In this document: positions 18,535 to 27,475 of the stretch, one piece after another
Layout of the letters: each line of letters starts with the position of its first letter
Numbering within the stretch: the stretch's first letter is position 1
Assembly: GCA_041495365.1 (NCBI GenBank)
Contig: JBGQCL010000007.1
Location: 2,547 to 66,546, forward strand
Direction of reading: 5' to 3'
DNA length: 64,000 bases
DNA from: Kofleriaceae bacterium
Lineage (GTDB): Bacteria; Myxococcota_A; Polyangia; Haliangiales; Haliangiaceae
Program-made: the position numbers and the translations under genes
The notes under the pieces: model-generated
What the model was told of the DNA's origin: nothing
The model's input: the letters and a program-made list of their open reading frames with translations, nothing else
Database searches by the model: none

Positions 18535-18550
18535 AGGCACGGCAGTTGCG
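18535..18550 (+). promoter_or_regulatory. Sigma-54 type -24/-12 motif P4 (ccoNO supraoperon)
   Basis: AGGCAC-GGCAG-TTGCG, then 13 nt, then ATG (18564). Confidence 0.6.
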
Positions 18551-18563
18551 ATGACCGGGCGCG

Positions 18564-24639: not shown

Positions 24640-27248
24640 CCGCGGCGGTCGCCCCGGCGAGCTGCCTGCACTGCGGGCTCCCGGTGCCCGCCGGTCGCGC
24701 GCGGTTCTGCTGCGCCGGCTGCGAGGTCGTGCACGACGCGATCGCGGCGAACGGCCTCGAGCAGTTCTACGCGCTGCGCGAGACCGCCGAGCCGGCGCGC
24801 ACCACCGAGCACGACTACACCGAGCTCGACGATCCGGCGTTCCAGCGCCTGCACGTCGAGGCGACGCCCGGGGGCCAGGCGCGCGCCGCGCTGTACCTCG
24901 AGGACCTGCGCTGCACCGCGTGCGTGTGGCTGGTCGAGAGCGTGCCGCGCTGCCTGGCCGGGGTCAGCGAGGTCCGCGTCGATCTCGGCCGCAGCCGGGC
25001 CGATGTGGTGTGGGATCCCGCGGCGACGTCGCTCGCGCAGATCGCGCGCTACCTCGACCGGATCGGCCACCCGCCGCACCCGTACCGCGGCCTTGCGCGC
25101 GATGCGCTGCGCCGCCGCGAGGACCGCGCGCTGCTGATCAAGCTCGGCGTCGCCGGCGCGGCGGCCGGCAACCTGATGCTGCTGGCGATCGCGCTGTACG
25201 CCGGGCTGTTCGGCGGGATGTCGCGCACCGACACCGGGTTCTTCCGCTGGGCGTCCATGTGCGTCGCGCTGCCCGCGCTCGGGTTCGCCGCGACCCCGTT
25301 CTTCCGCACCGCGCTCGGCGCGCTGCGCGCCCGCCGGCTCCACCTCGACCTGCCGCTGTCGATCGGCATCCTCGCCGGCCTGGGGTGGGGCAGCGCCAAC
25401 GTGATCCGCGGCGTCGGCGAGATCTACTTCGACTCGCTCGCGATGCTCACGTTCCTGCTGCTGGGCGCGCGCTGGATCGTGCTGCGTCACCAGCGCCGCG
25501 CGTCGACCGCCGCGGAGCTCCTGCTGTCGCTGACCCCGAGCCGCGCCCACCGGCTCGATCCGGAACGCTTCGCGGAGCTGGCCACCGCCGCGACGGCCGG
25601 GCCGGCGATCGACGTCCCGATCGAGGCGATCGCGCCCGGCGACGTCGTGCGCGTGCTGGTCGGCGAGGTGATCCCGGTCGACGGCGAGATCGTCGCCGGT
25701 CGCTCGGCGATCGATCTCGGCCTGCTGACCGGGGAGTCGCGGCCGGTCGACATCGAGATCGGTCACGCGGTCTGCGCCGGCACGGTCAACATCGCGGCGC
25801 CGATCGCGGTCCGCGCGACCGCGGTCGGCGAGGACACCCGGGTCGGCAGGCTGGTCGCGCGCATCGAGAGGCTGTCGGTCCATGCGCCGATCCAGCGCCT
25901 GGTCGACCGGATCGCCGGCCGGTTCGTCGCGGTGGTGTCGTCGGCCGCGGTCCTGACCCTGATCGGCTGGTCGCTCGCCGGGCTCGCCGGCGCGCACGGC
26001 GCCTCGATCGCGGCCGGCGCCGAGCACGCGATGGCGCTGCTGATCGTGACCTGCCCGTGCGCGCTCGCGCTGGCGACCCCGCTCGCGGTCACCGTCGCGC
26101 TCGGCCGCGCGGCGCGCCGCGGCGTGCTGGTCAAGGGCGCCGATGCGCTCGAGCGGCTGGCCACGCCGGGCACGATGTTCGTCGACAAGACCGGCACGCT
26201 GACCGCGGGCCGGCTCGCGGTCGTGACCTGGCGCGGCGACGTCGACGCGGCCGCGCTCGCGGCGTCGGTCGAGGCCGGCAGCAACCACCCGGTCGCCCGC
26301 GCGCTGTGCGCCCATGCAGGACCGGCGGCCGCGGCGCAGGACATCCACGAGGAGCTCGGCCGCGGCGTCACCGCGACGGTGCGCGGCCATCCCGCGGGGA
26401 TTCCCTCGGGCCAAGGAGGCGGGGGGCCCCTTCCCCCCGCTCGATCCATCGCCCTCGGTCACCGCATCGTGGTCGGCGCGCCGGCGTGGGTCCGCCAGCG
26501 CTGCAAGTCGCGCCCGGTGATCGAGGGCTGGATCGCCGAGCTCGCCGAGCGCGGCGAGACCCCGATCGTGGTCGGCTGCGACGGCGCGATGATCGCGGTC
26601 GCCGGGCTCGCCGATCCGATCCGCGACGACGCGCGCGCAGCGCTCGGCGAGCTGGCTCGCCTGGGCTGGGACGTCCAGCTGCTGTCCGGCGACGACGAGC
26701 GCGTGGTCCGCCGGGTCGGCGGCGCGCTCGGCGTGCCGTGGTCGCACTGCCACGGCCAGGTCTCGCCCGAGGACAAGGTCACCGCGGTGGTCCAGGCCGG
26801 CCGGCGCGGCCCGGTCGTGATGGTCGGCGACGGCGTCAACGATGCGGCGGCGATGGCGGCGGCCAGCGCCGGGATCGCGGTGTCCGGCGCGGCCGAGATC
26901 GCGATCGAGGTGGCCGACGTCTACCTGCGCTCGCCCTCGATCACCGCGATCGCCGCGACCGCCGGTGGGGCGCGGGACACGCTCGCCACGATCCGCCGCA
27001 ACCTCAAGTTCTCGCTCGCGTACAACCTGGTCGCCGGCGCGCTCGCGGTGGCCGGCGTGATCCACCCCCTGATCGCGGCGGTCGTCATGCCGCTCAGCTC
27101 GCTGACGGTGCTTGCCAGCTCGCTGCGATCGCGGGCGTTCCGGGACTCGATCCCACGGGGGGCTCTGCCCCCCGCCCCGCCGGCGGAGCCGTCGGGGTCC
27201 CCACCCCCCGTCTCGCTTCGCTCGACCCGCGTGGAGAGCTCACCATGA
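24636..27248 (+). CDS. ccoI: Copper-translocating P1B-type ATPase CcoI/FixI
   Basis: N-terminal Cys-rich metal-binding domain (CLHCGLPV...CCAGCE), HMA CTAC, TM CPC (CPCALALATP), DKTGTLT, GDGVNDAAAMA. ATGA overlap at both ends. Confidence 0.9.
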   Translation: MTAAVAPASCLHCGLPVPAGRARFCCAGCEVVHDAIAANGLEQFYALRETAEPARTTEHDYTELDDPAFQRLHVEATPGGQARAALYLEDLRCTACVWLVESVPRCLAGVSEVRVDLGRSRADVVWDPAATSLAQIARYLDRIGHPPHPYRGLARDALRRREDRALLIKLGVAGAAAGNLMLLAIALYAGLFGGMSRTDTGFFRWASMCVALPALGFAATPFFRTALGALRARRLHLDLPLSIGILAGLGWGSANVIRGVGEIYFDSLAMLTFLLLGARWIVLRHQRRASTAAELLLSLTPSRAHRLDPERFAELATAATAGPAIDVPIEAIAPGDVVRVLVGEVIPVDGEIVAGRSAIDLGLLTGESRPVDIEIGHAVCAGTVNIAAPIAVRATAVGEDTRVGRLVARIERLSVHAPIQRLVDRIAGRFVAVVSSAAVLTLIGWSLAGLAGAHGASIAAGAEHAMALLIVTCPCALALATPLAVTVALGRAARRGVLVKGADALERLATPGTMFVDKTGTLTAGRLAVVTWRGDVDAAALAASVEAGSNHPVARALCAHAGPAAAAQDIHEELGRGVTATVRGHPAGIPSGQGGGGPLPPARSIALGHRIVVGAPAWVRQRCKSRPVIEGWIAELAERGETPIVVGCDGAMIAVAGLADPIRDDARAALGELARLGWDVQLLSGDDERVVRRVGGALGVPWSHCHGQVSPEDKVTAVVQAGRRGPVVMVGDGVNDAAAMAAASAGIAVSGAAEIAIEVADVYLRSPSITAIAATAGGARDTLATIRRNLKFSLAYNLVAGALAVAGVIHPLIAAVVMPLSSLTVLASSLRSRAFRDSIPRGALPPAPPAEPSGSPPPVSLRSTRVESSP
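26393..26447 (-). repeat. Probable diverged copy C of the hairpin repeat, reverse orientation, in frame inside ccoI
   Basis: The reverse complement reads TCGAGCGGGGGGAAGGGGCCCCCCGCCTCCTTGGCCCGAGGGAATCCCCGCGGG. On the ccoI strand it encodes PAGIPSGQGGGGPLPPARS. Confidence 0.4.
27147..27221 (+). repeat. Hairpin repeat family copy D (75 nt), forming the C-terminal tail of ccoI
   Basis: TCGATCCCACGGGGGGCTCTGCCCCCCGCCCCGCCGGCGGAGCCGTCGGGGTCCCCACCCCCCGTCTCGCTTCGC. The stem GGCTCTGCC/GGCGGAGCC shows a compensatory change relative to E1/E2. Confidence 0.85.
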
Positions 27249-27475
27249 CCGTGCTGTACCTCATTGTCCCACTCGCCCTCTTGATCGCCGGAGTGGCGGT
27301 CGCAGCGTTTGCGTGGACCGTGCGCTCCGGGCAGCTCGACGACGTCGATACTCCGCCCCGCAGGATCCTGTTCGATGACGAACGCGCAACGACTGCGCGC
27401 TGCGCGGCCCCCGCCGCAGGCGATGCGCCGGAGCGTGAGCGACATGGGCATTTTCCTGGCACAGCTCGTGAGTAG
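27245..27475 (+). CDS. ccoS: cbb3 oxidase maturation protein CcoS/FixS
   Basis: MTVLYLIVPLALLIAGVAVAAFAWTVRSGQLDDVDTPPRRILFDD matches the CcoS pattern. ATGA overlap with ccoI. Confidence 0.75.
   Translation: MTVLYLIVPLALLIAGVAVAAFAWTVRSGQLDDVDTPPRRILFDDERATTARCAAPAAGDAPERERHGHFPGTARE

Follow-up and report, generated by a model that had tools for sequence, protein, structure and literature searches.

The stretch of DNA analysed here (the window, 64 kb) belongs to contig JBGQCL010000007.1 of the 12.7-Mb draft genome of a Kofleriaceae bacterium, which is split into 876 contigs and has a G+C content of about 72%. Its plus strand carries the genes of a cbb3-type oxidase, from a fused ccoNO to ccoS, downstream of hemN and a hemerythrin gene; a sigma-54-type -24/-12 element lies immediately before ccoNO. 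Its minus strand carries an operon which codes for a sigma-54 activator of the enhancer-binding protein (EBP) type and for two kinases. The subject of this work is the promoter of the cco genes and the activator that probably acts on it. Genes in the window were assigned by Pfam, and the coordinates of all the features are given in Table 1.

The cco genes are tightly packed. The stop and start codons overlap as GTGA between ccoNO and the ccoQ-like gene (20753), and as ATGA between the ccoQ-like gene and ccoP (21007), ccoG and ccoH (23360), the DsbD-like gene and ccoI (24636), and ccoI and ccoS (27245). The two remaining junctions are gaps, each of which holds one copy of a GC-rich 61-nt repeat (family D15, the two copies being 92% identical). 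A sequence-only reading of this DNA had described every cco junction as either a 4-nt overlap or a gap filled by a repeat, and this description holds, with four ATGA, one GTGA and the two gaps. Consensus scans of both gaps found no sigma-54 or sigma-70 motif on the plus strand. The junctions and the absence of such motifs are consistent with a single long transcript from ccoNO to ccoS. The gap before ccoG also contains a 25-bp duplication (21700-21724 and 21889-21913) of the ribosome binding site and start of ccoG, which resembles the target-site duplication of a small mobile element.

The -24/-12 element of ccoNO

The core of the ccoNO element, GGCAC-N5-TTGC (18536-18549), has no other exact copy in the window. 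The element matches the consensus TGGCAC-N5-TTGCW at 10 of 12 positions, and its GG and GC doublets are exactly 10 nt apart. The sequence-only reading had placed this motif, which it called P4, 13 nt upstream of the ccoNO ATG; the coordinates are confirmed, with 13 nt (18551-18563) between the final G of the element and the ATG at 18564, and 14 nt between the GC doublet and the ATG. The expected number of exact motifs in a given stretch of 40 nt, on one strand, is about 1.6e-4. The one-mismatch versions of the motif in the window are at chance level (22 found, 19 expected), so that the motif alone is weak evidence and it is conservation that carries the case.

Orthologues of CcoNO (75-90% amino acid identity) were compared in 15 genomes of the same genus, including that of the window. 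The motif GGC[A/G]C-N5-TTGC is present 13-18 nt upstream of the initiation codon in all 15 loci. In an alignment anchored on the motif, identity is 98.5% over the nine specified positions, compared to 47% in the flanks, with G after GGCAC and TTGC invariant; the spacer and the flanks of the element diverge, and the N-terminus of CcoNO is conserved from the ATG onward. The gene upstream of ccoNO varies among these relatives (a globin kinase, a divergent small gene and others), whereas the element stays attached to ccoNO.

The position of the element with respect to the start codon is not particular to this locus. The exact GGCAC-N5-TTGC motif occurs 101 times in the 25.3 Mb of the two strands of the genome, no more often than with other spacings, and the enrichment appears only relative to start codons. 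Counts of ATG offsets were made genome-wide without gene calling. An ATG is found exactly 13 or 14 nt after GGC[AG]C-N5-TTGC at 28 and 21 of 478 sites, respectively, and after GGCAC-N5-[ACG]TGC at 43 and 13 of 504 sites, compared to about 5 at other offsets, and the control spacings N4 and N6 give no ATG peak. With a relaxed motif, 383 sites have an ATG at 13/14 nt, compared to about 145 at control offsets, which is an excess of about 240. The free positions of 155 such sites give TGGCACG-N4-TTGCW (T before GG, G after GGCAC, T before TGC), with A or T after the GC doublet in 77% of them. Nearly all the sites at 13-14 nt start with ATG, and none of those listed leaves room for a Shine-Dalgarno sequence. 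The same is seen at ccoNO, where the 13 nt upstream of the ATG, gatgaccgggcgc(g), contain no GGAGG-like run and no Shine-Dalgarno sequence. Several other families of the phylum also show the bias, to a weaker degree: summed over the per-genome counts of a sample of 80 genomes, the exact motif is followed by ATG at 13/14 nt in 231 cases and at 16/17 nt in 125, compared to 29 and 3 in the genome of the window.

One could argue that the element is no promoter but a chance match, or that it has another role at the 5' end of ccoNO, such as that of a conserved signal in the RNA or in translation. The chance-level count of one-mismatch motifs is compatible with this, and a signal for translation might, in principle, explain a constant distance to the ATG. 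However, the GG and GC doublets are spaced exactly (GG-N10-GC), the free positions agree with the sigma-54 consensus across the genome, the control spacings show no ATG peak, a Rfam scan of 18250-18700 gives no match, and phased enhancer sites lie upstream (see below). We regard this explanation as highly improbable, close to negligible.

With the C of the GC doublet taken as -12, the ATG begins at +3 or +4, which leaves leaders of 0-3 nt. The ccoNO mRNA is thus predicted to be near-leaderless (start 0-3 nt before the AUG), given a distance of 14 nt from the GC doublet to the ATG and the lack of a Shine-Dalgarno sequence. It is reasonably probable that the sigma-54 polymerase of this lineage routinely yields leaderless mRNAs, or mRNAs with leaders of 2-3 nt, from some 240 promoters, one of which heads a 9-kb respiratory operon. 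With its promoter abutting the ATG, the operon of a hypoxia-induced oxidase would need leaderless initiation for the translation of its first cistron. An out-of-frame ATG (TTGCGATG) directly follows the -12 element at 18546-18554, and is also seen in L003, L006, L008, L012 and L013 (6 of the 15 loci in total).

Enhancer sites and the predicted activator

Two palindromic sites, S1 and S2 (Table 1), are located in the 227-nt region between the hemerythrin gene and ccoNO. They are separated by 15 bp (18476-18490), and the sigma-54 element starts 31 nt after S2. Among the orthologous ccoNO loci, an exact core GCA-N5-TGC lies 43 nt upstream of the GG in seven (window included) and 32-33 nt upstream in three; a second exact core is found in five, 73 nt upstream. 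Over the whole genome, the start-to-start distance of pairs of this core peaks at 30-31 bp (32 and 12 pairs, against a background of about 3-5), and the core is found 92 times upstream of ATG-abutting sigma-54 sites, where 27 are expected. The offsets between core and sigma-54 site are phased by about 10.5 bp (near 43, 64, 74 and 95 nt), on one helix face.

The NmpR protein of Myxococcus xanthus is an NtrC-like sigma-54 activator which binds GCGCA-N5-TGCGC, the GCA-N5-TGC core being intact in every bound site; the sites come in two copies, preferentially 14-15 bp apart (PMC11841059). Electrophoretic mobility shift assays (EMSA) and lacZ fusions have assigned to its regulon a CBS gene with nmpR, the nmpU-T-S genes, a USP gene, a P-type ATPase gene with the cbb3 oxidase, hemN-hemerythrin, and pilR (PMC11841059). 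The expression of the CBS gene mxan_4236 increases under hypoxia in an NmpR-dependent manner (PMC11841059). The palindrome found here was derived from sequences alone; by its pattern, its spacing and the genes downstream, it is the published NmpR site. At ccoNO, as expected of a member of the NmpR regulon, the core is intact in both sites, at least one site has no more than one mismatch, the gap is within 14-15 bp, and the sites are intergenic, with the orientation of the nearby sigma-54 element.

The EBP encoded at 49749-51161 is the probable NmpR counterpart, as suggested by the common site, the partner proteins and the regulon. Its operon has a sigma-54 element of its own, with NmpR-type sites 72 and about 43 nt upstream, and this design is kept in the orthologous EBP-kinase pairs of 16 other genomes. 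The globin domain of the first kinase matches that of AfGcHK (5ohe, E = 1.8e-28), and in the alignment its His93 and Tyr40 fall on two haem ligands of that protein, His99 and Tyr45. Direct phosphorylation of the EBP by the globin kinase is conceivable but was not taken as the main scheme, because an NmpS-type REC-HisKA-CA kinase follows in the operon. Nineteen genomes of the genus have the EBP-kinase pair. The pair and ccoNO are on one contig in 11 genomes, of which ten belong to the genus and one to another family; in four (G006, G011, G015 and G021) the pair immediately precedes ccoNO. The genome has a single Sigma54_DBD match, rpoN, and 95 Sigma54_activat matches, about 80 of which are full length. 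In M. xanthus, sigma-54 is reported to be essential.

The size of this EBP family leaves room for the idea that ccoNO is sigma-54-dependent but activated by another EBP, the palindrome being recognised by a paralogue of the 49749-51161 product. There are some 80-95 EBP matches to choose from, three orthologous loci have no exact site, and the binding of the EBP to the sites is predicted here. On the contrary, across species the operon of this EBP has these sites, with the distance unchanged. It lies on the contig of ccoNO in 11 genomes and next to ccoNO in four, and its kinase partners and the content of the regulon match those of NmpR. Activation by a paralogue is therefore very unlikely.

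FNR-type boxes were also searched for. With up to three mismatches, no TTGAT-N4-ATCAA is found in the intergenic stretch before ccoNO, and the sole match before hemN (three mismatches, 16263-16276) lies within a small gene on the minus strand; further FNR-type matches at 16921 and 17308 fall within hemN. TTGAT occurs only at 16483 between 15900 and 18600, and ATCAA is absent there. This agrees with the sequence-only reading, which had reported no such palindrome upstream of ccoNO or hemN and a single half-site, at 16483. No FNR-like box with two mismatches or fewer is present within 250 nt upstream of any of the 15 orthologous ccoNO genes, and the genome encodes only two clear Crp/Fnr-type helix-turn-helix proteins. 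A scan of genome contigs with CcoNO gave 80 loci, M. xanthus not among them. Two metagenome-assembled genomes (MAGs) of other Myxococcota have an FNR-type box upstream of a fused ccoNO: it is perfect in L083 (TTGATCTAGATCAA, about 101 nt upstream) and has one mismatch in L072 (TTGATCCAGATCAC, about 117 nt upstream). A Myxococcales MAG (L062) retains the design with sigma-54 and NmpR. Thus, both regulatory solutions exist within the phylum for the same oxidase.

A scan of 15900-28000 for sigma-70 promoter and intrinsic terminator consensus sequences found nothing. Yet the E. coli consensus used in such scans fits myxobacterial sigma-70 promoters poorly, and ccoNO might be expressed mainly from an unrecognised sigma-70 promoter, or by read-through from hemN-hemerythrin, giving an mRNA with a leader, the -24/-12 site adding only a minor, conditional boost. 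The hemN-hemerythrin operon immediately precedes ccoNO on the plus strand and has an NmpR/sigma-54 promoter of its own, and the 227-nt spacer has no canonical U-tract terminator. This spacer does contain a strong hairpin after the hemerythrin gene (18425-18449), which may be a terminator or insulator protecting ccoNO from read-through. Read-through is also difficult to reconcile with the conserved loci, where the upstream gene changes and the -24/-12 element always abuts ccoNO, and a leadered mRNA would need a Shine-Dalgarno sequence, which is missing before the ccoNO ATG. Expression of this kind is unlikely to be the main one.

We consider it quite likely that the ccoNO-ccoS operon is transcribed by the sigma-54 polymerase and driven, in response to oxygen, by the NmpR-type EBP (49749-51161) acting at two sites. 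The proposal of a sigma-54-type rather than an FNR/CRP-type promoter, made earlier from the sequence, is supported by the conservation in 15 of 15 loci, the absence of boxes, the presence of rpoN and EBPs, and the phased enhancer sites. By homology with the NmpRSTU system of M. xanthus, the haem-globin kinase would report oxygen and, when oxygen is scarce, the hybrid kinase would phosphorylate the NmpR-type activator. The latter would bind S1 and S2, 15 bp apart, on the helix face of the promoter, and would switch on the cbb3, hemN-hemerythrin, USP and CBS genes as well as its own operon. The sigma-54 polymerase would then start at or just before the ccoNO AUG, and a single transcript of about 9 kb, initiated from GGCAC-N5-TTGC (18536-18549), would cover ccoNO, the ccoQ-like gene, ccoP, ccoG, ccoH, the dsbD-like gene, ccoI and ccoS.

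Several points weigh against this scheme. Two flanking positions of the ccoNO element are off consensus (A instead of T before GG, and G instead of W after GC), and within 130 nt no exact core site is found in three of the 15 orthologous loci (L013, L014 and L017). The ccoNO start site and transcript are predicted from sequence, read-through from hemN-hemerythrin into ccoNO might occur, and the hairpins of the repeats in the two cco gaps could attenuate a long transcript. The orthology of the EBP with NmpR is proposed from the common site, the partners and the regulon, in a genome with about 80 other EBPs. Last, the two-receiver protein NmpT was not found beside the operon, the rest of the genome not having been searched for it.

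Other candidate promoters in the window and in the genome

The promoters of hemN and of the divergent 38-amino-acid gene are mirror-symmetric around a single NmpR-type pair, the sites being 44 and 75 nt upstream of each GG. A small gene for a single-transmembrane (TM) protein with a conserved N-terminus (...WTIPLH...) is divergent from ccoNO in L003 and L013, and is beside hemN in the window. This protein may be an accessory subunit of the oxidase or a factor for its assembly.

The 3' end of ccoS contains two NmpR-type sites (27384-27398, which is perfect, and 27414-27428) followed by GGCAT-N5-TGGC (27447-27460). This last element is 25 nt before the ATG of a multihaem cytochrome cluster (27486) and, unlike the others, leaves room for a short leader. 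The sites and the element together suggest that the multihaem cluster has a separate, oxygen-regulated promoter of the NmpR type.

Farther downstream, the ATG-abutting promoter geometry recurs at 51.8-55.4 kb, before USP, CBS, APH-like and other genes. Between genes of the putative regulon, a dip in G+C coincides with a gene for a fusion of XRE-type helix-turn-helix and M78 (ImmA/IrrE-type) peptidase domains (44459-46213, minus strand), followed by a small open reading frame. In the whole genome, the core site is present at 75 of the 383 candidate ATG-abutting sigma-54 promoters. Promoters with sites precede HypC, nitroreductase, BON, NapC/NirT, M50-CBS and acyl-CoA dehydrogenase genes (contigs C387, C119, C73, C24, C4 and C438). 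Seven promoters are known in M. xanthus; the regulon predicted here would be far larger, and is similar to a dormancy stimulon.

Table 1. Features of the window that bear on the expression of the cco genes, with positions in the window
Feature	Position	Strand	Basis or remark
38-amino-acid single-TM protein gene	16220-16336	-	divergent from hemN
Element TGGCAC-N5-CTGCT of the 38-amino-acid gene	16365-16350	-	14 nt from ATG
NmpR-type site pair	GCA-N5-TGC 16398-16408; GCG-N5-TGCGC 16429-16441		between the divergent promoters; read directly
Sigma-54-type element of hemN, GGCAC-N5-TTGA	16473-16486	+	14 nt from ATG at 16501
hemN	16501-17904	+	Pfam
Hemerythrin gene	17920-18336	+	Pfam; operon with hemN
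Hairpin, perfect 11-bp stem, no U tract	18425-18449	+	between hemerythrin gene and ccoNO enhancer sites
Distal site S1, GCGCAGGTGGTGCGC, perfect GCGCA-N5-TGCGC	18461-18475	+	core starts 73 nt upstream of -24 GG
Proximal site S2, ACGCAAACGCTGCGC, aCGCA-N5-TGCGC, one mismatch	18491-18505	+	core starts 43 nt upstream of GG
Sigma-54-type -24/-12 element of ccoNO, aGGCACg-gcag-TTGCg (AGGCAC-GGCAG-TTGCG)	18535-18550	+	motif and conservation
Fused ccoNO, 730 amino acids, COX1 and FixO domains	18564-20756	+	first cistron
ccoQ-like gene, small membrane protein	20753-21010	+	weak FixQ match
ccoP, FixP_N and one cytochrome c domain	21007-21672	+	Pfam
ccoP/ccoG gap, 227 nt	21673-21899	+	61-nt repeat copy at 21772-21832
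ccoG (FixG)	21900-23363	+	Pfam
ccoH (FixH)	23360-23809	+	Pfam
ccoH/DsbD-like gap, 131 nt	23810-23940	+	second 61-nt repeat copy at 23843-23903
DsbD_2-type membrane protein gene	23941-24639	+	Pfam
ccoI, P1B-type copper ATPase	24636-27248	+	Pfam
ccoS (FixS)	27245-27475	+	Pfam
Candidate NmpR/sigma-54 promoter within ccoS, at its 3' end	27384-27460	+	motifs
Putative nmpR/globin-kinase/hybrid-kinase operon, promoter included	47406-51189	-	domains and motif
Hybrid kinase, REC-HisKA-HATPase	47406-48521	-	domain search
Globin-coupled kinase, Protoglobin-HisKA-HATPase	48589-49752	-	overlaps EBP gene by 4 nt
nmpR-like EBP gene, REC/sigma-54 AAA+/HTH_8	49749-51161	-	domain search
Sigma-54 element of the EBP operon, TGGCAC-N5-TCGCT	51189-51174	-	13 nt from ATG

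Comparison with known systems

The closest system is NmpRSTU of M. xanthus (McAllister et al. 2025, J Bacteriol 207:e00280-24, PMC11841059; Bretl et al. 2018, PMC6211767). The two have in common an NtrC-type sigma-54 activator, paired GCGCA-N5-TGCGC sites 14-15 bp apart upstream of a sigma-54 site, a protoglobin histidine kinase (NmpU in M. xanthus) and a REC-HisKA-CA hybrid kinase (NmpS). The targets predicted here are also those of M. xanthus: the cbb3 oxidase and copper ATPase, hemN-hemerythrin, USP, CBS and regulator genes. The control of the cbb3 oxidase and of hemN-hemerythrin by NmpR and sigma-54 has been proven in M. xanthus by EMSA and reporters (PMC11841059), so this wiring is already known. 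The sequence-only reading had presented it as a different regulatory solution, which holds with respect to proteobacteria but is no longer new since the work on M. xanthus. The differences are as follows. The organism studied here belongs to the class Polyangia, and M. xanthus to the Myxococcia. The promoter is directly at ccoNO, with ccoI downstream, whereas in M. xanthus it precedes the ATPase gene. The putative nmpR, globin kinase and hybrid kinase genes form one operon, predicted to be autoregulated, with no NmpT gene seen beside it, and more genes are predicted to belong to the regulon. The cbb3 oxidase and hemN-hemerythrin seem to be part of the core of the NmpR regulon. The oxygen-limitation circuit (from globin kinase to NmpR to sigma-54), defined by experiment in Myxococcus, would extend to soil myxobacteria of a distant and largely uncultured class.

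The proteobacterial fixNOQP/ccoNOQP genes, which are controlled by FixLJ-FixK2 or FNR-type proteins (Anr, FnrL), are similarly induced at low oxygen together with hemN, and the primary oxygen sensor is haem-based in both cases: FixL in FixLJ-FixK2, and probably the globin kinase here. Unlike in the FixK/FNR systems, there is neither a TTGAT-N4-ATCAA box nor a sigma-70 class II architecture at this locus, and the predicted output is a sigma-54 AAA+ activator. The DosS/DosT-DosR system of Mycobacterium tuberculosis also senses O2 through haem kinases and has a regulon rich in USP, CBS and nitroreductase genes. However, DosR is a LuxR-type regulator that works with a sigma-70-type polymerase in another phylum, and the cbb3 oxidase is outside its regulon.

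The less described part is the geometry of the promoters, which the NmpR paper does not address (PMC11841059): about 240 motifs are 13-14 nt from an ATG, which implies near-leaderless mRNAs. Literature searches (Myxococcus, myxobacteria and general) returned no paper linking sigma-54 promoters with leaderless mRNAs, and pairing cbb3 with RpoN returned none either. Classical sigma-54 promoters (glnAp2, nifH, pspA) share with the ccoNO promoter the TGGCAC-N5-TTGCW consensus, the GG-N10-GC spacing and the upstream activator sites, but they have leaders with a Shine-Dalgarno sequence, whereas here the ATG comes 13-14 nt after the GC doublet and no Shine-Dalgarno sequence is present. Promoters that abut start codons bear on gene calling and on the assignment of start codons in high-GC myxobacterial genomes and, if the prediction is true, this geometry would be a concrete case of sigma-54-driven leaderless expression.

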